Shown here: positions 1,348 to 51,064 of the stretch, in pieces | Layout: each line of letters starts with the position of its first letter | Numbering within the stretch: position 1 is the first letter of the stretch | Assembly: GCF_030013595.1 (NCBI RefSeq) | Contig: NZ_CP122768.1 | Direction: 5' to 3' (one strand) | From: Escherichia coli | Lineage (GTDB): Bacteria; Pseudomonadota; Gammaproteobacteria; Enterobacterales; Enterobacteriaceae | DNA length: 64,000 bases | The notes under the pieces: model-generated | Databases searched by the model: none | The model's input: the letters and a program-made list of their open reading frames with translations, nothing else | What the model was told of the DNA's origin: nothing | Translations under genes and position numbers: made by a program

Positions 1348-1839
1348 TTAATCACCGGCAGCCACGCTGGTCTGTTTACTGTCGTACTTACTGGTGTCCT
1401 GCTGGCTGCTTATCAGCAGGTCGTGGCCCACATCGGCGATAATCCTGTTGCCGTTGACCTGAGCACCGTTCAGTACCGTATCCCGACCACTGTTGATGGT
1501 GACGGTTTTACCGCTGTCTGTTGTGGTTTCAGTCCACTCAGTACCGTTACCTTTCTCGCTGCCTTTTGCCGCATTAACGCTGGCAAAGACGCTGATACCG
1601 GCACCGTTACCACCGGCACCGATACTGACACCCACGCCACCGCCAGCCCCGGTTATCAATGGTGCTGAGGTAGTCACTCCATGAATACGTGTAATCCACC
1701 AGGGTATAGCCATACGGCAGACTGACACCGGCGGCAAAATTCCTCGCATCATGTGACACCGAAAAGTCACTGCTCCGTCCCCCGCTGACAAACCAGTTGT
1801 CAGCCAGCCCCAGAGGATTATTAAAGGAAAGGACACCAT
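1348..1839 (-). pseudogene. Hemagglutinin/CdiA-like repeat fragment (TpsA remnant) in a different frame from the TpsB fragment
   Basis: Gly-rich stretch followed by ...[39 protein letters not shown]..., resembling filamentous hemagglutinin/CdiA repeats; frame overlaps the end of the TpsB fragment, suggesting a deletion/frameshift fusion. Confidence 0.4.
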
Positions 1840-2662
1840 TTAACTGCCCCGTACCGGTATTCTTCTGCCCGCTGTTGTCGATGCCCACGCTCCCTGTGAC
1901 TGGCCATTCCGGCAATGCCGTCAGTGTCACCACCGACCATCCCTCACGGTCACCGGGCGATATTTCAATCTGTACCGGTTCCGTACGCAGACGATTAATC
2001 TGCTCCATCCCCTGCTCAATATCCCGCAGGTTCAGAACCTTCCCCTCCATTCCCGGGAAAACCATCTTCAGGGTGCGGGCAGGAAGGTCAGCGCCTTCCG
2101 CCCGGATTTGCTGCAGCCTGCCTTCCATGACCGTTATGTGCAGTACGCCCCCTGAAAGGTCCTGCTCTGTCAGAAAGGCCCGGCTGGTGATATATCCCCG
2201 GCGTATATAGCCGTCCGTCACGGCATCCGTGACCGCAGTCAGGCCGGTGATATTCAGACACTGATTCACCCACGGTGCCACCAGTCTGTCGGTTTCTGCA
2301 GACGTCAGTCGGGTGGCCCCACTGACAACAATGCGTGACACCGTAAAGCAGGGGCCTTCAGTACCGGCAGACGTTTCCGGAGACGGCGTGATAGTCAGCG
2401 GCGCACTGCGCTCCAGCGCATCACGCTGATGCTGGTTTTCATCCAGCAACTGCTGCTGTTGCTGCTGAATTGCACTGCGGTCACCCGGAGACAGCATGGC
2501 TGCCGGAGACGAAAATGCGGGGATAAAAAAACCAGAAAAAACGGAGAGGGAGAGATAGCATATCCACGGAGAGCCACGCCGGAACATATCACAACAGGGG
2601 ACAGACAACGCACGGGATAAAAGGGACGTTTTCGTCAGAATGTTGTTCTGCCGGCGCTGCAT
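1607..2662 (-). pseudogene. Two-partner secretion transporter (ShlB/FhaC/CdiB family, TpsB) N-terminal fragment, about 351 codons of an expected 550-590
   Basis: Signal-peptide-like N-terminus, glutamine-rich linker, POTRA-like segment and start of the beta-barrel, then premature stop; family assignment by motif recall. Confidence 0.55.
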
Positions 2663-3177
2663 GTTCTCCCCGTATTCTGGCCTGTGTGATGCCAGTGTAA
2701 ATTCATGTCAAAAAGTGTCAGCGAGAAAATTTACACCTGAAAAAGTCTGTCATGAAACAGTTTTATGACAAGACATCAAAAAAATGTCAAAAACGTGATC
2801 TTTCTTCAGCTTTTCAGAATATTGAGTACCAGGAAGTCAATATCAATTCTGGGACACATATGCATTTACCATTAAAACCGGGCACAACAAGCTGTTCAGT
2901 CTCAATCCATACCCCGTGTTTTATCAATATCAGAATAAGAATATCTGCGGATAAATAAAAAAGGAATGTCGAGGGAGCTTACCGCAGAGGGCTCTCCACC
3001 TCACAAACCATTTACAAAAATGATACCGGCATATCTTTGGTCCCTGTCACAACCAGACATTGACAATCCAATATAACCCCAAATATATTTCGGGTAAGAA
3101 GTCTGGGATTTATACAGATATACTGTCTGTTATTACTATTTAATTATATAATTGTATTGCATACATAAGAGGCACTA

Positions 3178-3567
3178 ATGAAACGTTATATAAAATGGTT
3201 TGCCATCACAATTTTTATCAGTATGTTGAGTGCCTGTGCCCGTACGGCCCCAGTGCAACAGATAAGCACCACTGTCAGTGTGGGTCATACTCAGGAGCAG
3301 GTTAAAAATGCCATTTTGAAAGCAGGTGCGCAGCGCAAGTGGATTATGACGCAAGTGTCCCCTGGAGTTATTAAAGCTCGCTATCAAACACGAAATCACG
3401 TTGCAGAGGTTCGTATTACATATACAGCTACCTACTATAACATCAAATATGACAGTAGCCTGAATCTGCAGGCTTCTGATGGAAAAATTCATAAAAACTA
3501 TAACCGCTGGGTGCGTAACCTAGATAAAGATATACAGGTTAACTTATCTACAGGAGCAACGTTATAG
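3178..3567 (+). CDS. Small predicted lipoprotein, first gene of the lipid-biosynthesis cluster region
   Basis: 129-aa ORF with signal peptide and lipobox (ISMLSAC); lies in visibly AT-rich DNA immediately upstream of the cluster methyltransferase. Confidence 0.6.
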   Translation: MKRYIKWFAITIFISMLSACARTAPVQQISTTVSVGHTQEQVKNAILKAGAQRKWIMTQVSPGVIKARYQTRNHVAEVRITYTATYYNIKYDSSLNLQASDGKIHKNYNRWVRNLDKDIQVNLSTGATL

Positions 3568-3631
3568 TGATGCTGATATCGGGCTGGAATGGCCCGATAG
3601 TATTTAACTTTCTCTATAAGAATGGTTATAT

Positions 3632-4690
3632 ATGTACGAACAGGACACGCTCAGCGCACTGGATGCCATCACCGAAGCACAGCGGATTGCCTTTGCTCCT
3701 ATGCTTTTCCAGGCAGCTTTGTGCCTGCGCAATGCAGGAATATTAGATTATTTGGATCAACAGGGTAAACAGGGAGCTCCCCTTAATGCGATTACTGAGC
3801 ACACAGTCCTGAATGAATATGCCGTGGGTGTGTTACTGGATATGGGCTTAAGCGGGCGAATTATTACCTGTAAAGAGGGAATTTATTACCTGGCGAAAAT
3901 CGGTCATTACCTCCTGCATGACACTATGACTCGCGTGAATATGGATTTCACCCAGGATGTCTGTTACCAGGGGCTCTTCTTCCTTGCCGATTCACTCAAT
4001 GAAGGAAAACCTTCCGGGTTAAAAGTATTTGGCGACTGGCCGACGATATATCCGGCACTTTCGCAATTACCAGACGCCGCACGTGATAGCTGGTTTGCGT
4101 TTGATCATTACTATTCAGATGGCGCATTTAACGCCGCACTGCCTTATGTATTCGCCAACAACCCCACAACCTTGTACGATGTGGGTGGCAATACGGGTAA
4201 GTGGGCTTTGCGCTGCTGCAAATTCAATGAAAACATCGCCGTTACGTTATTAGATCTGCCACAACAAATCGTACTGGCGAAAGAAAATATCGCGAATGCA
4301 GGTTTTTCTGATCGCATAGATTTCCATGCGGTGGATATGCTAAGCGATGCCCCATTACCAGGCGAGGCTGATATCTGGTGGATGAGCCAATTTTTAGACT
4401 GTTTTTCACCCGAACAAATAATTAGCATACTCAGCAAAATTGCCAGCGTAATGAAGCCTGGCGCAAAACTTTGCATCATGGAGTTGTTCTGGGATGCACA
4501 GCGGTTTGAAGCGACATCGTTTAGCCTGAATGCATCCTCACTTTATTTTACCTGCATGGCAAACGGTAACAGCCGTTTCTATAGTGCAGAGAAATTTTAC
4601 GACTATCTGAATAAAGCAGGATTCCAGGTAGCAGAGTGTCACGATAATTTAGGCGTTGGGCATACACTTTTGATATGCCAAAAGAAATAA
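3632..4690 (+). CDS. SAM-dependent methyltransferase (APE-cluster methyltransferase-like)
   Basis: 352-aa ORF with SAM-binding motif LYDVGGNTGKWA; position matches the methyltransferase of aryl-polyene clusters. Confidence 0.75.
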   Translation: MYEQDTLSALDAITEAQRIAFAPMLFQAALCLRNAGILDYLDQQGKQGAPLNAITEHTVLNEYAVGVLLDMGLSGRIITCKEGIYYLAKIGHYLLHDTMTRVNMDFTQDVCYQGLFFLADSLNEGKPSGLKVFGDWPTIYPALSQLPDAARDSWFAFDHYYSDGAFNAALPYVFANNPTTLYDVGGNTGKWALRCCKFNENIAVTLLDLPQQIVLAKENIANAGFSDRIDFHAVDMLSDAPLPGEADIWWMSQFLDCFSPEQIISILSKIASVMKPGAKLCIMELFWDAQRFEATSFSLNASSLYFTCMANGNSRFYSAEKFYDYLNKAGFQVAECHDNLGVGHTLLICQKK

Positions 4691-4730
4691 TCGTCACTTA
4701 ATAATTTTGGTTTACCGCGGGCGCGCGTTG

Positions 4731-5453
4731 ATGAAATTTGCATTAAATATTACCAACTGGCAGGCACTGGCGCCTGGACTTAGCGATGTGCAGCAATGGC
4801 AAGCATGGTCGCGCCAGCCGTGGGCGATTGACCCTGCCGCGCCGTTGGCAAAATTAAGTGAACTGCCAATGATGACCGCTCGTCGTCTCAGTTCAGGCAG
4901 CAAACTGGCTGTTGAATGCGGTCTGACAATGCTACGCCGCCATCAGCCAGACGCTGTTTTGTATACCAGTCGTCATGGCGAACTGGAGCGCAATTACCGC
5001 ATTGTTCATGCACTGGCAACCGAACAGGCGCTTTCTCCGACGGACTTCGCGCTTTCCGTACACAACTCTTCCGTGGGTAACCTGACCATTGTGGCCAAAC
5101 AGCCGATCGTTTCGTCATCGCTTTCGGCTGGTCGCGACAGTTTCCAGCAAGGTTTGTGTGAAGTGCTTAGCCTGCTACAAGCGGGATACCAGCGCGTGTT
5201 GATGGTCGATTTTGATGGCTTTCTACCTGAGTTTTATCACCCGCAACTGCCCGCAGAAATGCCTACCTGGCCGTACGCCGTCGCGCTGGTGATTGAAGCT
5301 GGCGATGACTGGCAATGTGAAACGCAGCCAGCCATTGCGGTAAATGAAACAACACTGCCGCAAAGCATCTTGTTTTTACAGCACTATTTACAAAATGCAG
5401 ATGCTTTTTCACTGCCTGGCGAGCGCGTGCAATGGCGCTGGAGCCGCAGATGA
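4731..5453 (+). CDS. Beta-ketoacyl-synthase-like protein (short KS-like, possible chain-length-factor partner)
   Basis: ORF track starts at TTG 4707; ATG at 4731 (MKFALNITNW) is more plausible. About 240 aa, shorter than a catalytic KS. Confidence 0.6.
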   Translation: MKFALNITNWQALAPGLSDVQQWQAWSRQPWAIDPAAPLAKLSELPMMTARRLSSGSKLAVECGLTMLRRHQPDAVLYTSRHGELERNYRIVHALATEQALSPTDFALSVHNSSVGNLTIVAKQPIVSSSLSAGRDSFQQGLCEVLSLLQAGYQRVLMVDFDGFLPEFYHPQLPAEMPTWPYAVALVIEAGDDWQCETQPAIAVNETTLPQSILFLQHYLQNADAFSLPGERVQWRWSRR

Positions 5454-6271
5454 GTAAGCTGATGTCGCGCCTGGGATGGGCATGGCGACTGGTCATGACC
5501 GGGTTATGTTTTGTCCTGTTTGGTCTCGGCGGCCTGCTGCTTTCAGTCGTGTGGTTTAACATATTGTTAGTTTTGGTGTGGGATACTTCCCGCCGCCGTC
5601 GTTTGGCACGTCGCAGCATTGCCGCCAGTTTTCGCCTGTTTTTAACTGTCGCGAAAGGGCTTGGCGTGCTGGATTATCGTATTGATGGCGCTGAAATTTT
5701 ACGTCAGGAACGCGGTTGCCTCGTCGTAGCCAATCATCCCACGCTGATCGATTACGTGCTGCTGGCATCAGTCATGCCAGAAACTGACTGCCTGGTGAAA
5801 AGCGCGCTGTTAAAAAATCCTTTTCTTGGCGGCGTCGTGCGAGCGGCAGATTATTTAATCAACAGCGAAGCAGAAACCCTGTTACCCCGCTGCCAACAGC
5901 GACTGGCACAGGGTGACACTATCCTGATTTTCCCCGAAGGCACACGAACGAAGCCCGGTGAAAAAATGACGTTACAGCGCGGTGCAGCGAATATTGCCGT
6001 GCGCTGCACCAGCGATTTACGCATCGTGACGATCGGCTGTAGCGAGCATCTGCTGGATAAACAAAGTAAGTGGTATGACGTCCCGCCTGCCAGGCCGTTT
6101 TTTACGGTTGAAGTCCGTGGGCGGGTAGAAATCAATAAATTTTACGATGCAACTTCACAAGAGCCGACGCTGGCTGCAAGACAGTTAAACCGGCATCTTT
6201 TGCTTCAATTACAGCAAGGTTGTTTACCTCTATCAGGAATAAATAATGCAAGCGCTTTATCTGGAAATTAA
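5450..6271 (+). CDS. Lysophospholipid/1-acyl-glycerol-3-phosphate acyltransferase family protein
   Basis: N-terminal membrane helix, acyltransferase motifs NHPTLIDYV (HX4D) and FPEGTR; ATG at 5450 overlaps the upstream stop (ATGA); the ORF track's alternative start is 5432. Confidence 0.8.
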   Translation: MSKLMSRLGWAWRLVMTGLCFVLFGLGGLLLSVVWFNILLVLVWDTSRRRRLARRSIAASFRLFLTVAKGLGVLDYRIDGAEILRQERGCLVVANHPTLIDYVLLASVMPETDCLVKSALLKNPFLGGVVRAADYLINSEAETLLPRCQQRLAQGDTILIFPEGTRTKPGEKMTLQRGAANIAVRCTSDLRIVTIGCSEHLLDKQSKWYDVPPARPFFTVEVRGRVEINKFYDATSQEPTLAARQLNRHLLLQLQQGCLPLSGINNASALSGN

Positions 6272-6503
6272 AAACCTCATCATCAGCACCCTCAATCTGG
6301 ACGACTTGACTCCTGATGATATTGATATCAATGCGCCACTGTTTGGCGACGGTTTAGGGCTGGACTCTATCGATGCACTGGAACTGGGACTGGCAGTAAA
6401 AAATGAGTACGGCATCGTGCTCTCTGCGGAAAGCGAAGAAATGCGTCAGCACTTTTTCTCCGTCGCCACTCTGGCCTCTTTCATTGCTGCGCAACGTGCC
6501 TGA
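6246..6503 (+). CDS. Acyl carrier protein (first of tandem pair)
   Basis: 85-aa acidic ORF with phosphopantetheine attachment motif GLDSID. Confidence 0.85.
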   Translation: MQALYLEIKNLIISTLNLDDLTPDDIDINAPLFGDGLGLDSIDALELGLAVKNEYGIVLSAESEEMRQHFFSVATLASFIAAQRA

Positions 6504-6514
6504 GGAAAACCATC

Positions 6515-6766
6515 ATGACAGACCAACAAACCATTTATCAGGAAGTCTCAGCCCTGCTGGTTAAGCTGTTTGAAATCGATCCGCAGGACATCAAACCTGA
6601 AGCGCGACTGTACGAAGATCTGGAACTGGACAGCATCGACGCCGTTGACATGATTGTGCACCTGCAAAAGAAAACCGGTAAGAAAATCAAGCCGGAAGAG
6701 TTTAAAGCAGTGCGTACAGTCCAGGATGTTGTCGAGGCTGTAGAACGCCTGCTACAAGAAGGCTAA
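6515..6766 (+). CDS. Acyl carrier protein (second of tandem pair)
   Basis: 83-aa acidic ORF with LELDSIDAV motif. Confidence 0.85.
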   Translation: MTDQQTIYQEVSALLVKLFEIDPQDIKPEARLYEDLELDSIDAVDMIVHLQKKTGKKIKPEEFKAVRTVQDVVEAVERLLQEG

Positions 6767-6767
6767 T

Positions 6768-7352
6768 TTGATGTCGGGCATTCGCTCGCTACCGATGATT
6801 AAGTTGCTGACCGGATTATTGCTGCTCGTCTGGCCTTTTTTAATCTGGCTAGGTTTGGTGCATAACAGCCTGCACTGGCTGTTGCCGCTGATGGCGCTGT
6901 TGCTTTTATTGCGCCTGCGCCAGCCCCGTCGCCAGACGGGGCCGCTCCAGGTCGTCACAAAAATCGTTGCTGTTGTGGGCATTGTATTGTGTGTCTCCAG
7001 TTTTCTGTTGAAAACGTACCAGTTACTGCTGTTTTACCCGGTAGTGGTTAACGCAGTCATGCTGGCGGTTTTTGGCGGTTCGCTGCGGTCGACAATGCCG
7101 ATAGTTGAGCGGCTGGCACGTTTGCAGGAGCCAGACCTCCCGGAAAAGGCCGTGCGATATACCCGCCGCGTAACGCAGGTCTGGTGCCTGTTTTTTATTT
7201 TCAATGGCAGTATTGCGTTATTTACCACCTTGTATGGCAACATGCCCTTGTGGACAGCCTGGAACGGTATCATTGCTTACCTTCTGATAGGTTTCCTGAC
7301 TGCAGGGGAATGGCTGATACGTCGTAAGATGATCAAACGGAAAACACCATGA
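6768..7352 (+). CDS. Small integral membrane protein of the cluster
   Basis: 194-aa ORF with several hydrophobic helices; no catalytic motif recognised. Confidence 0.6.
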   Translation: MMSGIRSLPMIKLLTGLLLLVWPFLIWLGLVHNSLHWLLPLMALLLLLRLRQPRRQTGPLQVVTKIVAVVGIVLCVSSFLLKTYQLLLFYPVVVNAVMLAVFGGSLRSTMPIVERLARLQEPDLPEKAVRYTRRVTQVWCLFFIFNGSIALFTTLYGNMPLWTAWNGIIAYLLIGFLTAGEWLIRRKMIKRKTP

Positions 7353-8707
7353 ATCAGACTCTCTCACTTTCACAGTGGTTGACAGCCTCTCGCCCTGTAA
7401 CAACTCCTGTTGCCTGGCTTGGGGAATATACCTGGACACTGGGGCATCTGCGGCATGATGTAGCGCTTTTGATCGACCATTTACGCGACCAGCCAGGCAA
7501 TCGCTGGGCACTTTGTTTTGAAAACAGCTATCTTTTTATTGTAGCGTTGTTGGCCACGCTACACTCAGGTAAAATCCCGGTAATCCCGGGCCATAATCGC
7601 GCCGCTTTGTTAAATGTACAACGCTCTTTGTTTGATTGCGTCCTGAGTGATAAAAGGCTGGGCTGGAACGGTCCACAGTTTGTTGTAAGCACATCTCACC
7701 AGATGACGACCAGCACGATAGCCTTTGATGATATTGCTTCTGACGCGTTTATTGAACTTTTCACATCGGGTTCAACCGGACAACCAAAACAAATTGCAAA
7801 ACCTGTTATCAGCCTTGATCAAGAAGCAAACATGCTGGCAACTCACTTTGCAGACCGACTACTGGGCTGTCGTTTTGTAGCATCCGTGATGCCTCAGCAC
7901 CTGTATGGGCTAACTTTCCGTATTTTTTTACCCATGGCACTTGGCCTGCCATTGCATGCCGCAATGCTCTGGTATTCTGAGCAACTTGCCGCATTAAGCC
8001 ATACCTACCGCTATGCCTTTGTCAGCAGCCCGGCGTTCCTTAAGCGACTCGACCTTCATCTGACGCCTCCCCCAGTGGAAATGATTCTCTCTGCCGGCGG
8101 TATGCTACCATGGCAGGATGTAGAGAAAACTTCCACCTGGCTGAATATATGGCCCGATGAAATCTATGGTAGTACCGAAACAGGTATTCTCGCATGGCGT
8201 TACCGTCAACAGGATAATATCCCCTGGTTTACTTTTTCTGATGTTCATCTTTCACAGGAAAGTGAGGGGGTTCGTGTCTTTTCGCCACTAATCCCTGCTG
8301 AAGGATTGGTGCTTGACGATATGTTGCAATTCAATGAAAACGGTCAGTTCCACCTGATCGGACGACGTGGTCGAGTGGTAAAAATAGAGGAGAAGCGGAT
8401 ATCACTGGTTGAAATCGAACAACGACTTCTGGCACTTGACGGTATTATGGATGTCGCTGCAATACCATTAATACGCAATGGCCGCCAGGCTATCGGTGTC
8501 GTGGTTGTACCAAATAAAGAGGCCCGTCAAATATGGCAATGCTCCGGAGGGAAAACTCTGGAGTTGTCCTGGCGCAAAGCACTATTACCATGGCTTGAAC
8601 CTGTTGCAGTACCTCGTTACTGGCGCATTATTGATGAAATACCAGTAAACAGTATGAACAAGCGTGTCTATGCGCAATTACAGGAGTTATTTCATGATAC
8701 GCCATGA
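7349..8707 (+). CDS. AMP-dependent synthetase/ligase (adenylating enzyme, probable starter-acid:ACP ligase)
   Basis: 452-aa ORF with AMP-binding motif TSGSTGQPKQ; ATGA overlap with upstream gene. Confidence 0.8.
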   Translation: MNQTLSLSQWLTASRPVTTPVAWLGEYTWTLGHLRHDVALLIDHLRDQPGNRWALCFENSYLFIVALLATLHSGKIPVIPGHNRAALLNVQRSLFDCVLSDKRLGWNGPQFVVSTSHQMTTSTIAFDDIASDAFIELFTSGSTGQPKQIAKPVISLDQEANMLATHFADRLLGCRFVASVMPQHLYGLTFRIFLPMALGLPLHAAMLWYSEQLAALSHTYRYAFVSSPAFLKRLDLHLTPPPVEMILSAGGMLPWQDVEKTSTWLNIWPDEIYGSTETGILAWRYRQQDNIPWFTFSDVHLSQESEGVRVFSPLIPAEGLVLDDMLQFNENGQFHLIGRRGRVVKIEEKRISLVEIEQRLLALDGIMDVAAIPLIRNGRQAIGVVVVPNKEARQIWQCSGGKTLELSWRKALLPWLEPVAVPRYWRIIDEIPVNSMNKRVYAQLQELFHDTP

Positions 8708-9047
8708 AATTGAGCGCCATCTGGTTCAACCGCAGGAGATGGAAATCGTTCTATACCTTGACCCGATGCTCTACTGGTTTAATGGTCATTTTGCCGTACA
8801 GCCTCTGTTACCAGGCGTGGCCCAGTTGGACTGGGTAATGCATTATGCTACCACGCTGCTTGCTCCGGGCTGGCGTTTTCGTAGTATCCAGAATGTTAAA
8901 TTTCTGGCGCCACTTATACCTGAGACGACTGTTACCCTGCAATTAACATGGCAGGAAACAAGTCAGGTACTCACTTTCTGCTATCAGCGTCACGACGGTG
9001 ACGCCCGCCACACCGCCAGTAGCGGGAAGATCCGTCTATGTCGGTAA
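8664..9047 (+). CDS. Hot-dog fold dehydratase/thioesterase-like protein
   Basis: About 120-aa ORF in the position of the small dehydratase of APE clusters; start may be the ATG at 8694. Confidence 0.55.
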   Translation: MSMRNYRSYFMIRHEIERHLVQPQEMEIVLYLDPMLYWFNGHFAVQPLLPGVAQLDWVMHYATTLLAPGWRFRSIQNVKFLAPLIPETTVTLQLTWQETSQVLTFCYQRHDGDARHTASSGKIRLCR

Positions 9048-10714
9048 ACTTTTCTCCCTGCGTGTTGATCCCCTGCTACAACCACGGCGCGATGATGCCG
9101 GGCGTGCTGGCGCGTCTTAAGCCATTTAATCTGCCCTGTATTGTGGTGGATGACGGCAGCGATGCCGCCACGCAACAGCAACTGGATAATCTGGTTAGCG
9201 AACAGCCTGGCGTGACCTTAATTCGCCTGGCAGAAAACGCAGGTAAAGGCGCAGCGGTGATGCGTGGCTTGCAGGCAGCGGCAGACGCAGGGTTCAGCCA
9301 TGCGGTGCAGGTGGATGCTGACGGTCAACATGCGATTGAAGATATCCCCAAACTGCTGGCACTCGCTGAACAACACCCTGTGGCGCTGATCTCCGGTCAG
9401 CCAATTTACGATGACTCCATTCCCCGCTCACGGCTGTACGGGCGCTGGGTCACCCACGTCTGGGTATGGATCGAAACGCTCTCCCTGCAACTGAAAGACA
9501 GCATGTGCGGTTTTCGCGTTTATCCGGTTGCGCCGACGCTGCAACTGGCAAAACGCGCCACCATCGGCAAGCGGATGGATTTCGACACCGAAGTGATGGT
9601 GCGCCTCTACTGGCAGGGAAATACCAGCTATTTCGTGCCGACCCGCGTCACCTATCCACTGGACGGGCTTTCGCATTTTGATGCCCTGAAAGATAACGTC
9701 CGCATCTCGCTCATGCACACGCGTCTGTTTTTCGGCATGTTGCCGCGTATTCCTTCACTGCTGATGTGCCACTCTTCCAGCCACTGGGCGCGGCAGAGTG
9801 AAGTTAAAGGGTTATGGGGAATGCGCCTGATGCTGCTGGTCTGGCGTCTGCTGGGAAGAACGGCGTTTACCGCGCTGCTTTACCCGGTGGTTGGCGTCTA
9901 CTGGCTCACCGCTGCTCGTGCGCGTAAAGCGTCGCAAGACTGGCTCGCCCGTGTGCGCCAACAACAACCACAGGCAGCAAAAATCAACAGCTATCAGCAC
10001 TTTCTACGTTTCGGCAACGCCATGCTCGACAAAATCGCCAGCTGGCGCGGCGAGCTGCAACTCGGGCGTGATGTGCTGTTTGCGCCAGGCGCAGAAGCGG
10101 CGCTTGACGTCCGCGATCCGCGCGGCAAATTGCTGCTGGCCTCACATCTTGGCGATGTGGAAGTGTGCCGGGCGCTGGCAAAAATTGAGGGCTACAAAAC
10201 CATTAACGCGCTGGTGTTTAGCGAAAACGCCCAACGCTTTAAACAGATAATGCAGGAGATGGCTCCCCAGGCAGGCATTAACCTGATGCCGGTAACAGAT
10301 ATCGGCCCGGAAACCGCCATCCTGCTGAAAGAGAAGCTGGATAACGGCGAATGGGTGGCGATTGTCGGTGACCGCATCGCCGTCACCCCGCAACGCGGCG
10401 GCGACTGGCGCGTCTGCTGGAGTCCGTTTATGGGCCAGCCTGCGCCCTTCCCACAGGGGCCGTTTATTCTCGCCTCTATTTTGCGCTGCCCGGTGAATCT
10501 GATTTTCGCCCTACGCCAGCACGGCAAGCTGCATATTCACTGCGAAACCTTTGCCGACCCGCTGCTGTTGCCGCGTGGCGAACGCCAACAGGCGCTGCAA
10601 AACGCTATCGACCACTACGCCGCGCGTCTGGAACATTACGCGCTCCAGTCGCCCCTCGACTGGTTTAATTTTTTCGATTTCTGGCAACTGCCGGAAATTC
10701 AGGACAAGGAGTAA
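9038..10714 (+). CDS. Fusion protein: family-2 glycosyltransferase N-terminal domain plus lipid-A-type (LpxL/HtrB-like) acyltransferase C-terminal domain
   Basis: N-terminus CVLIPCYNH...VVDDGSDAAT...VQVDADGQH (GT2 DxD-type motifs); C-terminal about 330 aa with membrane anchor and acyltransferase-like region. Confidence 0.7.
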   Translation: MSVNFSPCVLIPCYNHGAMMPGVLARLKPFNLPCIVVDDGSDAATQQQLDNLVSEQPGVTLIRLAENAGKGAAVMRGLQAAADAGFSHAVQVDADGQHAIEDIPKLLALAEQHPVALISGQPIYDDSIPRSRLYGRWVTHVWVWIETLSLQLKDSMCGFRVYPVAPTLQLAKRATIGKRMDFDTEVMVRLYWQGNTSYFVPTRVTYPLDGLSHFDALKDNVRISLMHTRLFFGMLPRIPSLLMCHSSSHWARQSEVKGLWGMRLMLLVWRLLGRTAFTALLYPVVGVYWLTAARARKASQDWLARVRQQQPQAAKINSYQHFLRFGNAMLDKIASWRGELQLGRDVLFAPGAEAALDVRDPRGKLLLASHLGDVEVCRALAKIEGYKTINALVFSENAQRFKQIMQEMAPQAGINLMPVTDIGPETAILLKEKLDNGEWVAIVGDRIAVTPQRGGDWRVCWSPFMGQPAPFPQGPFILASILRCPVNLIFALRQHGKLHIHCETFADPLLLPRGERQQALQNAIDHYAARLEHYALQSPLDWFNFFDFWQLPEIQDKE

Positions 10715-10717
10715 AGG

Positions 10718-11140
10718 GTGCTTAACGATCCCCGATTTACCGCTGAAGTCGAGCTGACCATTCCCTTTCACGACGTCGATATGATGGGCGTGGCCTGGCA
10801 CGGTAACTATTTTCGCTACTTTGAAGTGGCCCGCGAGGCGCTGCTCAACCAGTTCAATTACGGCTATCGGCAGATGAAAGAGTCCGGTTATTTGTGGCCA
10901 GTGGTCGATGCGCGGGTGAAATATCGCCACGCCCTCACCTTTGAGCAACGCATCCGCGTGCGTGCGCATATCGAAGAGTTCGAAAACCGTCTGCGGATTG
11001 GCTATCAGATTTTCGATGCCGAAACGGGCAAACGCGCCACCACCGGATACACCATTCAGGTCGCAGTCGACGAGCAAAGCCGCGAACTGTGCTTTGTCAG
11101 CCCCGATATTCTGTTTGAACGCATGGGAGTCAAACCATGA
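10718..11140 (+). CDS. 4HBT-type acyl-CoA/ACP thioesterase (hot-dog fold)
   Basis: 140-aa ORF with GTG start; resembles YbgC/4-hydroxybenzoyl-CoA thioesterase family. Confidence 0.7.
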   Translation: MLNDPRFTAEVELTIPFHDVDMMGVAWHGNYFRYFEVAREALLNQFNYGYRQMKESGYLWPVVDARVKYRHALTFEQRIRVRAHIEEFENRLRIGYQIFDAETGKRATTGYTIQVAVDEQSRELCFVSPDILFERMGVKP

Positions 11141-11742
11141 AATTTTTACCGCTGCTGGCGCTGCTGATTAGCCCGTTTGTGAGCGCCCTGACCCGGGACG
11201 ATCTTCAGCAACGCTTTACCGAACAACCGGTGATCCGCGCCCATTTCGATCAAACCCGGACGATTAAAGATCTGCCGCAGCCGCTGCGATCTCAGGGTCA
11301 GATGTTGATCGCCCGCGACCAGGGGTTATTGTGGGATCAAACCTCACCGTTCCCCATGCAACTATTACTGGACGATAAACGCATGGTGCAGGTGATCAAC
11401 GGTCAGCCGCCGCAAATCATCACGGCAGAAAACAACCCACAGATGTTCCAGTTTAACCACCTGCTGCGCGCGCTGTTCCAGGCCGATCGCAAAGTGCTGG
11501 AACAAAACTTCCGCGTCGAATTTGCCGACAAAGGCGAAGGCCGCTGGACGCTGCGCCTGACGCCGACCACCACGCCGCTGGACAAAATTTTCAACACCAT
11601 CGATCTCGCCGGGCAAACCTATCTGGAGAGCATTCAGCTTAATGATAAACAGGGCGATCGCACCGATATCGCTCTTACCCAACATCAACTGACACCAGCG
11701 CAACTGACCGATGACGAACGCCAACGCTTTGCCACCCAGTAA
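11137..11742 (+). CDS. LolA-like outer-membrane lipoprotein carrier protein
   Basis: 201-aa ORF with signal peptide; LolA-like by recall of family features and position beside the MMPL exporter. Confidence 0.65.
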   Translation: MKFLPLLALLISPFVSALTRDDLQQRFTEQPVIRAHFDQTRTIKDLPQPLRSQGQMLIARDQGLLWDQTSPFPMQLLLDDKRMVQVINGQPPQIITAENNPQMFQFNHLLRALFQADRKVLEQNFRVEFADKGEGRWTLRLTPTTTPLDKIFNTIDLAGQTYLESIQLNDKQGDRTDIALTQHQLTPAQLTDDERQRFATQ

Positions 11743-14029
11743 ACGCCCCGCGCTGTTATGGGGGCTAGTCTGCCTGGTCATGGCGGCGGCGTTGCTGATC
11801 CTGCTGCCACAATCACGACTGAACAGTAGCGTGCTGGCTATGTTACCCAAACAGGCGATGGGCGATATTCCTCCGGCGCTGAATGACGGCTTTATGCAGC
11901 GTCTGGACCGCCAACTGGTGTGGCTGGTCAGCCCCGGTAAAGAGGCTAATCCCAGGGTGGCTCAGGAGTGGCTGACGCTGCTGCAAAAATCCGCTGCGCT
12001 CGGCGACATTAAAGGGCCAATGGATGCCGCCAGCCAGCAGGCGTGGGGAGCGTTTTTCTGGCAGCACCGCAACGGCCTGATTGACCCCGACACCCGCGCC
12101 CGCCTGCAAAATGGCGGCGAAGCGCAGGCGAAGTGGATCCTCTCCCAGCTTTATTCTGCGTTCTCCGGGGTAAGCGGCAAGGAGCTGCAAAACGATCCGC
12201 TGATGTTAATGCGCGGCTCGCAGCTGGCGATGGCGAAAAATGGCCAGCGTTTACGACTAATGGACGGCTGGCTGGTGACGCAGGATCCCCAGGGCAATTA
12301 CTGGTATCTGCTGCACGGCGAACTGGCGGGATCGTCGTTTGATATGCAGCAAACCCACCAGCTCATCACGACCCTGAATACGCTGGAAAAGGCTCTGAAA
12401 ACGCGTTACCCGCAGGCGCAGTTGCTCTCACGCGGCACGGTGTTTTACAGCGATTACGCCAGCCAACAGGCGAAGCAGGATATCTCCACCCTGGGCGTGG
12501 CAACGCTGCTGGGGGTGATATTGCTGATTGTGGCGGTGTTCCGCTCTTTGCGCCCGTTGCTGCTTTGCGTGATTTCCATCGGCATCGGCGCGCTGGCGGG
12601 AACGGCCGCCACATTGTTGATTTTCGGTGAATTACACCTGATGACGCTGGTGATGAGCATGAGCGTTATCGGCATTTCCGCTGACTACACGCTCTATTAT
12701 CTCACCGAGCGGATGGTGCACGGCAACGACGTTTCGCCGTGGCAAAGCCTGGCGAAAGTACGCAATGCCCTGCTGCTGGCGCTGCTCACAACCGTGGCGG
12801 CATATCTGATTATGATGCTCGCCCCCTTCCCCGGCATTCGCCAGATGGCGATTTTTGCCGCCGTCGGGTTGAGCGCCTCTTGTCTGACCGTCCTGTTCTG
12901 GCATCCGTGGCTGTGCCGTGGTCTGCCGGTGCGCCCGGTTCCGGCGATGGCGCTGATGCTACGCTGGCTGGCAGCGTGGCGGCGCAATAAAAAACTGTCG
13001 CGGGGTCTGCCCGTTGCGCTGGCGCTGTTTTCGCTGGCGGGGATGTCAATGCTGCGCGTCGATGACGATATCTCGCAGTTACAGGCGCTGCCGCAGCACA
13101 TTCTGGCGCAGGAGAAAGCCATTACCGCCCTGACCGGACAAAGCGTCGATCAAAAATGGTTTGTAGTTTACGGCGACTCCCCACAGCAAACATTGCGGCG
13201 ACTGGAGAAATATACCGCCTCACTTGAGTATGCGAAAAAAGAGGGGCTTATCAGCAACTACCGCACTATTCCGCTGAACTCCCTGGCGCGGCAGGAGGAA
13301 GACTTAGACCTGCTGAAAACGGCTGCCCCGACGGTAACAAAAGCACTGCAAAATGCAGGGCTGACGGCGGTGAAACCAGATCTCAACGCCATGCCGGTGA
13401 AGGTCGATGAATGGCTGGCAAGCCCCGCCAGTGAAGGCTGGCGTCTGCTGTGGCTGACGCTGGAAAACGGCGAAAGCGGTGTACTGGTGCCGGTTGAAGG
13501 GGTTAAAAGTAGCGCATTGTTGCAGGAAATCGCCAGCTATTACCCTTGCGGCATTGCCTGGGTTGATCGCAAAAGCTCCTTTGATGAATTGTTCGCACTT
13601 TACCGCTACGTCTTAACCGGCTTGTTGCTGGTGGCGCTGGCAGTGATTGCCTGCGGCGCAGTGGCCCGTCTCGGCTGGCGCAAAGGGCTTATCAGCCTGG
13701 TGCCTTCGGTGCTTTCGCTGGGCTGTGGTCTGGCGGTGCTGGCGATGAGCGGGCAGGCGGTGAATCTCTTTTCGCTGCTGGCGCTGGTGCTGGTGCTTGG
13801 CATCGGTATCAACTACACGCTGTTTTTCAGTAATCCGCGCGGTACACCGTTAACTTCGCTACTGGCGATCGCGCTGGCAATGCTCACCACCTTGCTGACG
13901 CTGGGAATGCTGGTATTCAGCGCCACCCAGGCCATCAGCAGTTTTGGCATTGTGCTGGTGAGCGGTATTTTCACCGCCTTCCTGCTTTCGCCGCTGGCTA
14001 TGCCCGATAAAAAGAGAACAAAAAAATGA
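11711..14029 (+). CDS. MMPL/RND-superfamily membrane exporter
   Basis: About 770-aa ORF with two blocks of transmembrane helices separated by soluble domains; exact start codon uncertain. Confidence 0.8.
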   Translation: MTNANALPPSKRPALLWGLVCLVMAAALLILLPQSRLNSSVLAMLPKQAMGDIPPALNDGFMQRLDRQLVWLVSPGKEANPRVAQEWLTLLQKSAALGDIKGPMDAASQQAWGAFFWQHRNGLIDPDTRARLQNGGEAQAKWILSQLYSAFSGVSGKELQNDPLMLMRGSQLAMAKNGQRLRLMDGWLVTQDPQGNYWYLLHGELAGSSFDMQQTHQLITTLNTLEKALKTRYPQAQLLSRGTVFYSDYASQQAKQDISTLGVATLLGVILLIVAVFRSLRPLLLCVISIGIGALAGTAATLLIFGELHLMTLVMSMSVIGISADYTLYYLTERMVHGNDVSPWQSLAKVRNALLLALLTTVAAYLIMMLAPFPGIRQMAIFAAVGLSASCLTVLFWHPWLCRGLPVRPVPAMALMLRWLAAWRRNKKLSRGLPVALALFSLAGMSMLRVDDDISQLQALPQHILAQEKAITALTGQSVDQKWFVVYGDSPQQTLRRLEKYTASLEYAKKEGLISNYRTIPLNSLARQEEDLDLLKTAAPTVTKALQNAGLTAVKPDLNAMPVKVDEWLASPASEGWRLLWLTLENGESGVLVPVEGVKSSALLQEIASYYPCGIAWVDRKSSFDELFALYRYVLTGLLLVALAVIACGAVARLGWRKGLISLVPSVLSLGCGLAVLAMSGQAVNLFSLLALVLVLGIGINYTLFFSNPRGTPLTSLLAIALAMLTTLLTLGMLVFSATQAISSFGIVLVSGIFTAFLLSPLAMPDKKRTKK

Positions 14030-14610
14030 TCAAATCCACATTCTGGCGAGCGTTCGCCCTGACCGCTACGCTTATCCTCACCGGCTGTAGCCACTCGCAA
14101 CCAGAACAGGAAGGCCGCCCGCAGGCGTGGCTGCAACCTGGCACGCGCATCACGCTGCCGGCACCAGGGATTTCACCCGCAGTCAATTCGCAGCAACTGT
14201 TGACCGGCAGCTTCAACGGCAAAACCCAGTCGCTGTTAGTGATGCTTAACGCCGACGATCAGAAAATCACCCTTGCCGGGCTGTCGTCGGTCGGCATTCG
14301 CCTGTTTCTGGTGACCTACGATGCGCAAGGGCTACGCGCCGAGCAATCCATCGTCGTCCCACAGTTACCGCCCGCAAGTCAGGTACTGGCTGACGTGATG
14401 CTCAGCCACTGGCCGATTAGCGCCTGGGAGGCGCAACTTCCCGCAGGATGGACACTTCGCGACAACGGTGACAAACGCGAGCTGCGTAACGCCAGCGGCA
14501 AACTGGTCACGGAAATCACCTATCTGAATCGCCAGGGAAAACGCGTGCCAATCAGAATTGAGCAGCATGTCTTTAAATACCACATCACCATTCAATACTT
14601 AGGTGAATGA
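14026..14610 (+). CDS. Lipoprotein of unknown function
   Basis: 194-aa ORF with lipobox LTGC; ATGA overlap with upstream exporter gene. Confidence 0.65.
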   Translation: MIKSTFWRAFALTATLILTGCSHSQPEQEGRPQAWLQPGTRITLPAPGISPAVNSQQLLTGSFNGKTQSLLVMLNADDQKITLAGLSSVGIRLFLVTYDAQGLRAEQSIVVPQLPPASQVLADVMLSHWPISAWEAQLPAGWTLRDNGDKRELRNASGKLVTEITYLNRQGKRVPIRIEQHVFKYHITIQYLGE

Positions 14611-14611
14611 T

Positions 14612-15781
14612 ATGATTTATATTTCCGCCGTCGGCATGATCAACGCCCTGGGAAATAACCTTGACGAAATCGCAGCCAACCTGGCTCGCGGTGTCGCCCC
14701 CGGCATGCGCCCACGCGCAGGCTGGTTGCAGGGGCATCCGCAGGCGGTCCTGGCTGGCGTGGATGGCGAGCTTCCGCTTATCCCGGAAAAATTCGCTGCG
14801 CATCGCTCGCGCAACAATCAGATCCTGCTGGCGGCGCTGGCGCAGCTCCAGCCGCAGGTTGATGACGCTATCGCGAAATATGGCTGCGAGCGCATCGCGA
14901 TTGTGCTTGGCACCAGCACCTCCGGCCTGCATGAAGGCGACACGCACGTTAACCTGCACACCCACGGGCAGCCGAGCACCACGTGGCACTATGCACAACA
15001 AGAACTCGGCGATCCGTCGCGTTTTCTCAGCCACTGGCTGGCGCTCGACGGCCCGGCTTATACCCTTTCAACCGCCTGCTCCTCCAGTGCCAGAGCAATG
15101 ATCAGCGGGCGCAGGCTTATCGAAGCGGGGCTGGTCGATGCCGCCATTGTGGGTGGCGCAGACACCCTGAGCCGAATGCCGATTAACGGTTTTCACAGCC
15201 TCGAATCGCTCTCGCCAACCTTATGTCAGCCGTTTAGTCGTGACCGCGCAGGTATCACCATTGGTGAAGGGGCGGGGCTAATGCTGCTGACCCGGGAACC
15301 GCAGCCCATCGCGTTGCTGGGCGTTGGTGAATCGAGCGACGCTTACCATATTTCAGCCCCGCATCCGCAGGGCGAAGGAGCGATCCGCGCTATTAATCAG
15401 GCGCTGACCGATGCGCAGCTTACGCCGGATGACGTCGGCTATATCAACCTGCACGGCACCGCCACACAGCTCAACGACCAGATTGAATCAATGGTGGTTA
15501 ACGCCCTGTTTGGCGAACGCGTACCGTGCAGCTCCACCAAACATTTGACCGGACACACGCTCGGCGCGGCTGGCATTACCGAGGCGGCAATTAGTATGTT
15601 GATTTTACAGCGTGATTTACCGCTGCCCGCTCAGGACTTCAGCCTGTCGCCGCGCGATCCCACGCTGCCACCGTGTGGCATTATCGAAAAACCGCAGCCG
15701 CTGGCACGTCCGGTGATCCTGTCCAATTCCTTCGCCTTTGGCGGCAATAACGCCAGCATTCTGCTCGGGAGGGTTTCGTGA
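14612..15781 (+). CDS. Beta-ketoacyl-ACP synthase (FabF/FabB-like KS)
   Basis: About 390-aa ORF with KS catalytic-region motifs (active-site Cys context STACSS, HGTAT, GHTLGAAG); ATG at 14612 preceded by AGGTGA. Confidence 0.85.
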   Translation: MIYISAVGMINALGNNLDEIAANLARGVAPGMRPRAGWLQGHPQAVLAGVDGELPLIPEKFAAHRSRNNQILLAALAQLQPQVDDAIAKYGCERIAIVLGTSTSGLHEGDTHVNLHTHGQPSTTWHYAQQELGDPSRFLSHWLALDGPAYTLSTACSSSARAMISGRRLIEAGLVDAAIVGGADTLSRMPINGFHSLESLSPTLCQPFSRDRAGITIGEGAGLMLLTREPQPIALLGVGESSDAYHISAPHPQGEGAIRAINQALTDAQLTPDDVGYINLHGTATQLNDQIESMVVNALFGERVPCSSTKHLTGHTLGAAGITEAAISMLILQRDLPLPAQDFSLSPRDPTLPPCGIIEKPQPLARPVILSNSFAFGGNNASILLGRVS

Positions 15782-18199: not shown

Positions 18200-18206
18200 G
18201 TTATAC

Positions 18207-18229
18207 AACCACATGGACATCCCATGTGG
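18207..18229 (+). terminator. Hairpin immediately after the last cluster gene (weak terminator candidate)
   Basis: accacatgg / ccatgtggt inverted repeat with 5-nt loop; no strong T-run, so low confidence. Confidence 0.3.
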
Positions 18230-50947: not shown

Positions 50948-51064
50948 CCACTATTCCGCTGAAGGCGTAATTGTTAAATAACATTACGCCGCCTGGCTTG
51001 AGGCCTTTTAAGTATGGCAACGTTTTCATAAAAATTGCTGCAAACAAAAAATGTCATGCTTTTT

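Follow-up and report, generated by a model that had tools for sequence, protein, structure and literature searches.

The 64,000-nt stretch of Escherichia coli DNA analysed here (the window) contains the head of an aryl polyene (APE) biosynthetic cluster, where a truncated cdiB gene and the first cluster gene, apeA, point away from each other across a divergent intergenic region, with apeB following apeA after a gap of 64 bp (Table 1). The genes, which a sequence-only reading of the same DNA had described as a polyketide-like cluster, are those of APE_Ec: window positions 2478-18269 are colinear with CFT073 c1186-c1204 at 98.25% identity without gaps, and the 1,401 bases compared at 2400-3800 are 100% identical to ETEC H10407, for which RefSeq records an 18-gene cluster with all genes in APE_Ec order. 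The biosynthetic core is present (the CLF apeC, the ACPs apeE/F, the acyl-ACP synthetase apeH, the dehydratases apeI/P, the KS apeO/R and the KR apeQ), as are the export-type genes (the transporter apeM, LolA-like apeL and DUF3261 apeN); apeB additionally matches NCBIfam FlxJ_fam_MTase at 1.1e-141, yet its 471.8 bits fall below the 560-bit cut-off. Horizontal acquisition, also proposed from the letters of the sequence, is borne out by the setting, with the H10407 cluster on an island with a pheV integrase, the CFT073 cluster on a different integrase island, and the cluster carried by 824 of 5,426 complete E. coli genomes. Few bacterial biosynthetic gene clusters are reported to be as widespread as those for APE, which influence how pathogens tolerate oxidative stress and form biofilms. 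Both the cluster and apeA have already been described, c1204 being listed as apeA 'lipoprotein' by Johnston et al. 2021 (PMC8253772), and the locus is real and mostly ordinary; a literature text search for c1200-c1204 returned the APE preprint as the sole relevant match.

Table 1. Features at the head of the aryl polyene cluster (window coordinates)
Feature	Position	Strand	Remarks
cdiB 5' remnant (ShlB/FhaC/HecB two-partner-secretion transporter)	1607..2662	-	Divergent from apeA; left edge of the intergenic region
Divergent intergenic region (leader and promoter region of apeA)	2663..3177		515 bp, 37.1% GC
cdiB 5' proximal region	2663..2741	-	Similarity reaches about 2800 in some genomes
Candidate sigma-70 promoter for apeA	3060..3089	+	TTGACA, 18 nt, TATATT; 11/12 consensus matches
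Palindrome ACCCCAAATATATTTCGGGT	3076-3095		From inverted-repeat search; overlaps -10 of the candidate promoter
Shine-Dalgarno AAGAGG	3167..3172	+	5 nt before the apeA ATG; read from sequence
apeA, first aryl polyene cluster gene, 129-aa prelipoprotein	3178..3567	+	ORF confirmed
Candidate internal promoter	3539-3568		TTAACT, 18 nt, TATAGT; inside apeA 3' end; 9/12 consensus matches
Stem-loop, 10 nt after the apeA stop	3577..3599	+	TATCGGGC, loop TGGAATG, GCCCGATA; 8-bp stem
apeB, O-methyltransferase (FlxJ-like), second cluster gene	3632..4690	+	Pfam Methyltransf_2 1.9e-17

The intergenic region had been characterised beforehand as conspicuously AT-rich and free of ORFs. Sliding-window GC computation upholds the first description: the region lies well below the whole window (50.0% GC) and the sequence directly upstream (55-60%), and its GC is equalled or undercut in just 2.3% of 515-bp windows across the 64 kb. 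The 62.9% AT is concentrated in two lobes, at 2701-2850 (62-69% AT) and 3051-3200 (61-74% AT), and both A/T tracts (n=11) and TpA steps (n=41) rank in the top 5% of 515-bp windows. Deeper GC dips are located at about 35.0, 39.0, 50.5-51.0 and 61.5-62.0 kb of the window, and nearby intergenic regions of the same genome have a median GC of about 0.44 and mostly lie above this one. The second description stands as far as annotation goes, with no gene annotated by RefSeq in the counterpart region of H10407, CFT073 and other strains, and fails on a strict reading of the letters, two short unannotated ORFs being present on the + strand (2640-2768, 42 aa; 2752-2958, 68 aa). The 68-aa ORF was considered as a gene and treated as non-coding, a chance Pfam match (E 0.083) being its only one.

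The region is a composite, with the left ~80-140 bp associated with cdiB and the right part with APE. The cdiB remnant retains Pfam POTRA_2, POTRA_3 and the N-terminal part of ShlB only, being labelled in RefSeq as 'incomplete, missing C-terminus', and the same 79-138 bp immediately precede an intact cdiB in genomes, and in plasmids, that are devoid of APE, for example EC93 pCP127. The right part appears to hold a near-consensus sigma-70 promoter, with a predicted start about 80 nt upstream of the apeA ATG, and consequently a putative apeA leader of ~80 nt at 24-28% GC. An Rfam scan of 2300-3900 (E<=1) identified neither a riboswitch nor an sRNA of known type in the leader, and a snoRNA-like match scoring 17 bits, where the threshold is 45, was dismissed as chance.

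Related apeA loci were gathered with an alignment of 10 closer homologues, yielding 80 Enterobacterales loci in which the 400 bp upstream of apeA range from 24 to 55% GC, lower than apeA itself in all but three of the 80 and lower than the genes that follow it without exception. Relative to the locus, median GC is -0.161 upstream of apeA and -0.059 in other ORF-free gaps (Mann-Whitney p = 1.7e-11, for loci that are not independent). When the 220 bp preceding apeA were aligned across 30 genera, no conserved promoter or operator emerged, the candidate promoter of Table 1 not being conserved between genera, and the sole conserved element was an RBS-like GGAG/GGGAG. What is kept upstream of apeA across these loci, as recognised here, is low GC and not sequence.

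Such a leader had been put forward as a target of H-NS silencing, with cluster expression being conditional in consequence. The ChIP-seq values of Hustmyer et al. 2022 (Data set S1A, PMC9765446) are given per gene, and binding at the leader is inferred from the neighbouring genes. In CFT073, IP/input for H-NS is 17.21 at c1204/apeA, a strong occupancy, and 7.72 at c1203/apeB, a weak one, both classed as 'H-NS bound', while c1202 to c1186 are unbound at 0.53-1.65 (apeC 1.65, other ape genes <=1.26), as is the divergent c1205 at 0.85, a value averaged over 2.6 kb (PMC9765446). The signal tracks a gradient of GC from apeA (0.418) through apeB (0.46) to apeC (0.534) and up to 0.605, ending where GC exceeds about 50%, from apeC onward, with apeB the last gene covered. 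RNA polymerase beta stands at 3.36 on apeA, 2.73 on apeB and 2.83 on apeC, at about 0.9-1.3 on apeJ-Q and at 1.72 on apeR, placing apeA and apeB in a rare H-NS-bound class with strong RNA polymerase signal (PMC9765446). Because polymerase is strong on apeA and apeB, full silencing by H-NS is not what these genes undergo under the ChIP conditions, and modulation is argued for instead; with that correction, the proposal of an H-NS target is supported by the CFT073 data.

Expression does depend on conditions, as anticipated. Between 23 and 37 °C the transcripts of the 5' genes rise about 3-4 fold and those of the 3' genes barely, with mRNA log2 fold changes (37/23 °C) of +1.46 for apeA, +1.98 for apeB and +2.12 for apeC, down to +0.33 at the 3' end, and of +1.09 for the ApeA protein (PMC12890032 supplement). 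Since H-NS binding and thermoregulation coincide here, repression of ape genes by H-NS is the reading favoured, and the papers and supplements searched contained no expression values from an hns mutant for c1186-c1204. The cluster is more strongly expressed under chronic oxidative stress, the homologous Xenorhabdus cluster is silent in the laboratory, and IHF is needed for APE production in F. perrara. Overexpression of TosR induces ape according to Johnston et al. (PMC8253772); no ape locus tag occurs in those parts of the TosR paper's text and supplements that were searched, which leaves Johnston's citation as the basis of the TosR link. Literature searches found no direct link between 'H-NS' and 'aryl polyene', and no paper joining OI-138 and H-NS.

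An alternative holds that the AT-richness is ordinary promoter or intergenic composition combined with an insertion scar, and that dedicated regulators, not H-NS, change expression. Several local promoter regions have a GC of 0.287-0.385, that of fecI being 0.287, so 0.371 falls within their range, and the mosaic with the cdiB remnant, together with IS1 and IS66 insertions at this region in other strains, suits the idea of a scar. The high-affinity H-NS motif TCGATAAATT is likewise not enriched in 2663-3177, where there are 5 matches at <=3 mismatches, the best of them with 3 mismatches, and as many are found in 46% of 515-bp windows. That motif is not required for H-NS binding. The abundant polymerase on apeA and apeB in CFT073 is a further point on this side (PMC9765446). 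It is opposed by the ChIP-seq occupancy itself, recorded at a CFT073 locus that differs from this one at 2 of the 515 intergenic bases; by an AT-richness that significantly exceeds that of other ORF-free gaps in these loci and persists across many genera without conservation of sequence; and by induction at 37 °C, which is typical behaviour of H-NS targets. On this evidence the alternative is improbable. The favoured mechanism is that H-NS would nucleate on the AT-rich leader and apeA, dampening initiation and/or early elongation, and that the resulting cluster expression would be condition-dependent, with repression lifted at 37 °C and through AT-binding antagonists, for example TosR of the PapB family.

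Downstream of apeA, a second putative control element is suggested by a stem-loop that is recognised here as conserved, with covariation. Of 82 loci, 71 have a structure of dG <= -12 kcal/mol within 55 nt of the apeA stop, the median z relative to dinucleotide-shuffled sequences being -3.2, and 5 of the 8 stem pairs display compensatory changes in a 38-sequence alignment. Its nature may be terminator-like, attenuating or RNA-stabilising: the tail in this allele, AGTATTTAAC, is weakly T-rich (5 T in 10) and a terminator scan made no call at 3577-3599, and a clear U-run stands behind the stem-loop in Atlantibacter, Brenneria, Dickeya and others. Intercistronic stem-loops set differential expression within operons, as in the papBA transcript. 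By punctuating transcription or stabilising the apeA message, the structure could allow the amount of lipoprotein to differ from that of the enzymes.

A rival possibility is that apeA is monocistronic, the stem-loop a true intrinsic terminator, and apeB-R served by a promoter of their own. Conservation of the structure with compensatory changes and the U-runs of other genera would fit, as would the promoter-like 9/12 site within the 3' end of apeA, which is, against this, a weak consensus match under coding constraint. Gene arrangement adds to the case: apeA and apeC point away from each other in Serratia liquefaciens and in S. proteamaculans, as do apeA-apeB and apeC-J in one distant locus, and the Xenorhabdus cluster is activated by PBAD placed before apeB. 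The weak T-richness of the tail in this allele argues otherwise, as does polymerase in CFT073, which barely falls from apeA to apeB (3.36 to 2.73) and is nearly flat over the junction through apeC (PMC9765446), and the common temperature response of apeA, apeB and apeC (PMC12890032). Separate transcription of apeA is less likely than not, and the punctuating or message-stabilising role of the stem-loop is preferred.

The first gene of the cluster had been read as encoding a 129-aa lipoprotein, and the ORF, the Shine-Dalgarno sequence and the lipobox LSAC agree with this. Measured against a basic N-terminus, a hydrophobic core and a lipobox [LVI][ASTVI][GAS]C, the signal peptide MKRYIKWFAITIFISMLSAC has a basic and hydrophobic N-terminus followed by L17-S18-A19-C20, with Cys20 (nt 3235-3237) invariant in 40 of 40 diverse homologues. 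The protein is identical to CFT073 c1204 at 128 of 129 residues; the +2 residue, Ala in this genome, is Val in CFT073, and Asp occupies it in 0 of 40 aligned homologues. In Enterobacteriaceae, lipoproteins without Asp at +2 are sorted to the outer membrane. ApeA is hence predicted from its sequence to be a Lol-sorted outer-membrane lipoprotein.

The accompanying claim that it belongs to no recognised family is right for the domain databases, with no Pfam-A match at E<=1 for ApeA and no consistent match over 40 family members, a best NCBIfam score of 17.9 bits, where the cut-off is 80, and no PDB sequence at E<0.08 for the family profile. It does not hold for the protein as such, which is named (ApeA, c1204) and belongs to a large unnamed family sitting at APE clusters, a membership recognised here: 2,435 50%-identity clusters are recovered at E<=1e-3, including tandem versions of 258-268 aa. 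In 79 of 81 Enterobacterales loci apeA is followed on the same strand by apeB or apeC, the other two having apeC adjacent and divergent, and distant family members stand beside APE genes in all four informative cases. The idea of the lipoprotein as unrelated cargo was rejected on this synteny over 80 loci and distant taxa, the gene being the described apeA and its family a conserved component of APE clusters.

An AF2 model (pLDDT 91) gives the mature domain a beta-beta-alpha-beta(5)-alpha order, that is, a helix-grip fold whose predicted topology is superposable on the helix-grip domains of BamC and on eukaryotic KA1 (kinase-associated-1) domains, a likeness recognised here. Sequence identity in the structural alignments is 4-15%, and at the level of sequence profiles the family matches neither a PDB chain nor a Pfam entry; the modelled likeness is no proof of common function.

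Deletion genetics bear on the step at which ApeA may act. In a Delta-apeA strain wild-type pigment is retained and the mature APE lipid is missing, with an HPLC profile equal to those of Delta-apeB and Delta-apeK (Johnston et al. 2021, PMC8253772). Because ApeA is predicted to be extracytoplasmic, a part in polyketide assembly is discounted. It most likely acts late, in APE-lipid maturation or outer-membrane localisation, where it would work with the LolA-like ApeL, the LolB-like ApeN and the MMPL pump ApeM. A tentative elaboration, to which we attach less than even odds, would make ApeA the outer-membrane end-point of a Lol-like APE-glycolipid export route (ApeM to ApeL to ApeN and ApeA), with the helix-grip domain receiving or positioning the lipid and its dosage set apart from that of the enzymes by the H-NS-bound leader and the stem-loop.

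The profile shared by the three deletions could also reflect a polar or regulatory effect on apeB. Carried further, this would leave ApeA with no direct role in lipid maturation, the phenotype of Delta-apeA being a cis effect on apeB or downstream expression and the protein an accessory surface lipoprotein, for example in adhesion or signalling; loss of AT-rich H-NS-bound DNA, of a promoter or of the stem-loop context would be the cause of such an effect. The retained pigmentation (PMC8253772) and the extent of the H-NS patch over both apeA and apeB (PMC9765446) are compatible with it, and some tandem two-domain family members on short contigs do not adjoin APE genes. In X. doucetiae, PBAD placed before apeB, downstream of apeA, is enough for APE-lipid production; the Xenorhabdus apeA retains its own promoter, however, and may still be expressed. 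The deletions were moreover built as in-frame 81-nt scars against polarity (PMC8253772), and apeA holds its place at the head of APE clusters in Enterobacterales and distant taxa, including clusters that no longer have apeB, which speaks for a pathway-linked function. An exclusively cis-acting explanation is therefore doubtful, and the late role of ApeA remains the preferred reading.

Taken together, the interval is quite probably the regulatory head of the known APE_Ec biosynthetic cluster on a mobile island, in a joint explanation that includes the proposals made for H-NS, ApeA and the stem-loop. Current understanding is not overturned by any of these results. Joining three published data sets (H-NS ChIP, temperature transcriptome and proteome, and ape deletion genetics) gives a concrete regulatory model for the timing of the pigment lipid, in which an H-NS patch limited to the leader, apeA and apeB would be relieved at body temperature; the fold, family size, synteny and stem-loop are small additions that make the role of ApeA testable.

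Among proteins of comparable fold, BamC has two domains where the ApeA model has one, and no evidence links ApeA with BAM; against the lipid-binding helix-grip proteins (Bet v 1, SRPBCC, Flpp3 (DUF3568)), ApeA, at ~110 mature residues, is smaller than a typical SRPBCC. The stem-loop may be likened to those of the papBA type, a GC-rich hairpin that directly follows a first or structural gene with high expression and precedes the enzyme genes, although a canonical U-tract accompanies it in some genera and not in this allele. In regulation, the locus resembles the 'class IV' CFT073 genes of Hustmyer et al. (PMC9765446), AT-rich lineage-specific DNA that is H-NS/StpA-bound yet transcribed, and the UPEC operons pap and tos, controlled by H-NS and PapB-family proteins, with which it shares higher expression at 37 than at 23 °C and a response to TosR as reported by way of citation. 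It differs from these systems in that no RfaH ops-dependent counter-silencing is reported for ape and the cluster is without a dedicated counter-silencer gene; its H-NS patch is short, at about two genes or roughly 1.5-2 kb including the leader, and moderate, at 17 versus 36-74 for strongly bound genes of the same table (PMC9765446). The closest counterpart is APE_Ec of CFT073 (Cimermancic 2014; Johnston et al. 2021, PMC8253772), which differs in the residue after the lipidated Cys (Val there, Ala here) and in its island site, lying on another integrase island where the present cluster is at pheV beside fecIRABCDE, and which shares the position of apeA as first gene, the upstream region and the divergent cdiB remnant.

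The window is chromosomal DNA of E. coli. Its bases 2400–3800 are 100% identical to ETEC H10407, where RefSeq annotation places the counterpart in the pheV-tRNA island, ordered as an integrase with IS1, fecIRABCDE, cdiA/cdiB two-partner secretion remnants and an 18-gene cluster with every gene on the same strand. Window 2478–18269 is colinear with CFT073 c1186–c1204 (98.25% identity, zero gaps), and the product of the ORF at 3178–3567 matches c1204 at 128/129 residues; c1204 is listed as ApeA, 'lipoprotein', by Johnston et al. 2021 (PMC8253772). The 'polyketide-like cluster' of the sequence-only reading is therefore the known aryl polyene (APE_Ec) biosynthetic gene cluster, and both it and its first gene had already been described.

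The leader, the intergenic region 2663–3177 upstream of apeA, is AT-rich as first reported, with 37.1% GC against 50.0% for the whole window and 55–60% just upstream; it falls among the lowest 2.3% of 515-bp windows in the 64 kb and below most neighbouring intergenic regions, yet inside the range of promoter regions. It is also free of annotated genes in every strain examined, and no support as genes, including from a Pfam search, was found for two short ORFs of 42 and 68 aa. The 515-bp windows of lowest GC, below the leader, lie at about 35000, 39000, 50500–51000 and 61500–62000.

Features of the apeA leader and its flanks (window positions)
Feature	Position	Strand	Description
Decayed contact-dependent-inhibition locus	1348–2662	-	cdiB 5′ fragment and cdiA fragment
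AT-rich lobes of leader	2701–2850 and 3051–3200		second peaks at 74–76% AT
Direct repeat	copies at 2705 and 2784		ATGTCAAAAA; left, mostly cdiB-associated part
Imperfect palindrome	2748–2770		TGTCATGAAAC-A-GTTTTATGACA; left, mostly cdiB-associated part
Imperfect palindrome	2819–2843		ATATTGAGTACC-A-GGAAGTCAATAT; left, mostly cdiB-associated part
Predicted sigma-70 promoter	3060–3089		TTGACA, 18 nt, TATATT; near-consensus, apeA-proximal part
Stem-loop	3577–3599		TATCGGGC, loop TGGAATG, GCCCGATA; ten nt past apeA stop codon

The intergenic region is a mosaic. The 79–138 bp with which it begins (2663 to about 2741/2800) are also found immediately upstream of intact cdiB in genomes and plasmids lacking an APE cluster, EC93 pCP127 among them, and are therefore part of the decayed divergent cdiB gene, of which a 5′ fragment (ShlB/FhaC; 351 codons) remains, joined by fusion or frameshift to a short cdiA fragment with hemagglutinin repeats; decay differs in CFT073, which retains a 201-bp cdiB piece and a 5.4-kb frameshifted cdiA. 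An IS66-family element abuts the leader at 2744 in O103:H2 FWSEC0007, as does IS1 at 2849 in CE0011b, everything to the left being replaced and the cdiB side gone in both, and the AT-rich region resembles a hot spot for insertion. CE0011b also carries a PapB/FocB-family regulator gene 1.7 kb upstream. The palindromes and direct repeat of the left part may be regulator sites. Towards apeA, a palindrome overlaps the −10 element of the predicted sigma-70 promoter, with a stretch of ~80 nt at 24–28% GC downstream of this predicted element.

Decisive evidence on H-NS comes from CFT073 ChIP-seq (Hustmyer et al. 2022, PMC9765446, Data set S1A), which transfers to the window because the CFT073 intergenic DNA differs at 2/515 positions. 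One of these, window 2945 (NC_004431 1158981, C to G, intergenic −233/−461), is on those authors' list of positions at which their CFT073 stock departs from the NCBI record, so the true leader difference may be a single base.

ChIP-seq occupancy along the CFT073 ape cluster (average IP/input per gene; rows are genes, not intergenic DNA; H-NS 'bound' cut-off near 7)
Gene	H-NS	RNAP beta	Class
c1205 (divergent)	0.85	0.68	not bound
apeA (c1204)	17.21	3.36	bound, IV
apeB (c1203)	7.72	2.73	bound, IV
apeC (c1202)	1.65	2.83	not bound
apeD (c1201)	1.16	10.47	not bound
apeE–apeI (c1200–c1196)	0.77–1.26	1.68–3.99	not bound
apeJ–apeR (c1194–c1186)	0.53–0.90	0.88–1.72	not bound

Class IV, which includes apeA and apeB, combines H-NS binding with strong RNAP and holds about 3% of genes (PMC9765446). 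The proposal that the AT-rich leader is an H-NS silencing target thus stands as to H-NS, bound at the flanking apeA and apeB, and is amended as to silencing, in that H-NS would modulate rather than abolish ape transcription. The TCGATAAATT H-NS motif is not enriched in the leader. GC climbs along the cluster (3178–18199) from 0.418 in apeA through 0.46 in apeB and 0.534 in apeC to 0.55–0.605 in the last nine genes; the H-NS signal mirrors this gradient, and H-NS occupancy and the 37/23 °C response both fall as GC climbs. At apeD (5432–6271), where H-NS is absent, RNAP beta occupancy is three to six times that of the neighbours (2.83 and 1.68), and may mark an internal promoter or strong pause within the cluster.

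Conditional expression, originally suggested from base composition, is borne out by several reports. In CFT073, mRNA log2 fold changes at 37/23 °C are +1.46 for apeA, +1.98 for apeB and +2.12 for apeC, then +1.1 to +1.7 for apeD–I, +0.5 to +0.8 for apeJ–P and +0.3 for apeQ and apeR; ApeA is also detectable at the protein level, where it rises by +1.09, and divergent c1205 rises by +1.54 (PMC12890032). Since both leader-flanking genes respond and the effect decays along the cluster, the pattern fits a temperature-sensitive block that would sit at its 5′ end. Induction of ape genes by TosR overexpression is reported secondhand, as cited by Johnston et al. (PMC8253772), and ape expression is raised under chronic oxidative stress; the X. 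doucetiae APE cluster is silent in the laboratory, and F. perrara requires IHF for APE production.

Among 80 Enterobacterales loci with genes for ApeA relatives, apeA is the first APE gene in every one and is followed on the same strand by apeB (apeC where apeB is missing) in all but two, in which the adjacent apeC is divergent. The 400 bp upstream of apeA have 24–55% GC, lower than apeA in all but three loci and than the downstream genes in every locus; the gap upstream of apeA lies 16 points under the locus mean compared with 6 points for the remaining ORF-free gaps (Mann–Whitney p = 1.7e-11, which overstates significance because the loci are phylogenetically related). Across genera, these upstream sequences do not align past the ribosome-binding site; the leader is conserved in composition, not in sequence. 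Within E. coli, the allele of the window occurs in about 258 genomes at ≥95% and a second, at the yhhT locus (e.g. O157:H7), in about 566 at about 85%. No similarity between the latter and this leader is detectable, and nucleotide homology begins at window 3235 (position 4001 of the fetched locus L002), just past the lipobox, indicating replacement of leader and signal peptide; ApeB is 94% identical between the alleles, ApeA only 65%. In seven loci from Raoultella, an Enterobacter sp. and Pantoea ananatis, apeB is lost or fragmentary and apeA kept, the apeA–apeC gap measuring 460–500 bp in Raoultella and the Enterobacter sp., and P. ananatis keeping only ApeB residues 206–352. The apeA locus on a contig assigned to Chryseobacterium sp. 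18061 is Enterobacter/Citrobacter-like and has almost the same layout as that of Citrobacter sp. 18056, which shares its source study; the Chryseobacterium assembly is probably mislabelled or contaminated.

In 71/82 loci the 55 nt that follow the apeA stop codon fold at ≤ −12 kcal/mol (median z −3.2 against dinucleotide shuffles), with compensatory double changes at 5/8 stem pairs in a 38-sequence alignment. A canonical U-run follows the stem in several genera, the tail being weak in the window allele; Serratia liquefaciens and S. proteamaculans have apeA oriented divergently to the remaining cluster genes, and one distant locus has apeA–apeB divergent from apeC–J. The conserved stem-loop, U-runs elsewhere and divergent arrangements together point to apeA as a separable expression unit. 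RNAP occupancy hardly changes across the apeA/apeB junction in CFT073 (PMC9765446), and the preferred reading of the stem-loop is an element that attenuates transcription or stabilises mRNA, not a full terminator.

ApeA has a good Shine–Dalgarno sequence and a lipobox (LSAC, Cys20), and, as the sequence-only reading held, no recognised family, lacking a Pfam, NCBIfam or PDB-sequence relative. Its own family comprises 2,435 cluster representatives (50% identity) at E ≤ 1e-3 and 784 at 1e-10, mostly of about 130 aa, with a few tandem versions of 225–316 aa containing two matched stretches. In Enterobacteriaceae, the Lol rule directs lipoproteins without Asp at +2 to the outer membrane; among 40 aligned homologues Cys20 is invariant and Asp at +2 absent in every one, predicting outer-membrane sorting. 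The AlphaFold2 model from this 40-sequence alignment (pLDDT 91, pTM 0.79) is a beta-beta-alpha-beta(5)-alpha domain, whose structural matches to KA1/BamC-type domains share 4–15% sequence identity, a likeness at fold level. From alignment and model, most invariant residues (W55, Y82, Y87, I89, Y91, Y108, W111, L115, I119) appear to have helix-on-sheet-core spacing, and a conserved polar set around the beta6–beta7 hairpin and where the last helix begins (S-x-N-L...G-x-I-H-x-N-Y-N-R-W) is the best candidate functional site. Distant members (36–38% identity) adjoin apeB or apeC–D in 4/4 informative contigs. Two tandem-domain members, on short contigs, are not beside APE genes; such versions occur in low-GC organisms, neighboured by an SBP_bac_3 protein and a TehB-like methyltransferase, and the domain may be used outside APE clusters too.

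Deletion of apeA preserves pigmentation, mature APE lipid being absent and early APE acids accumulating, and ΔapeB and ΔapeK resemble it (Johnston et al. 2021, PMC8253772). Polyene assembly is out of reach for an extracytoplasmic lipoprotein; the most likely role of ApeA, held at about even odds, is a late step of lipid maturation or outer-membrane localisation together with ApeL, ApeM and ApeN. The chief alternative, that the deletion acts in cis on apeB, is favoured by the position of apeA DNA at the core of the H-NS patch, where it may hold signals for apeB, and by Xenorhabdus with PBAD inserted downstream of apeA, which still makes APE lipids.

Set against the described APE_Ec system, the feature is real, was correctly described and was correctly guessed to be regulatory, and it forms the start of a cluster that had been characterised before. 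To that cluster are added modest new points: H-NS ChIP and thermoregulation data tied to the leader, ApeA's fold and family, the composition-only conservation of the leader, and a conserved intercistronic stem-loop.
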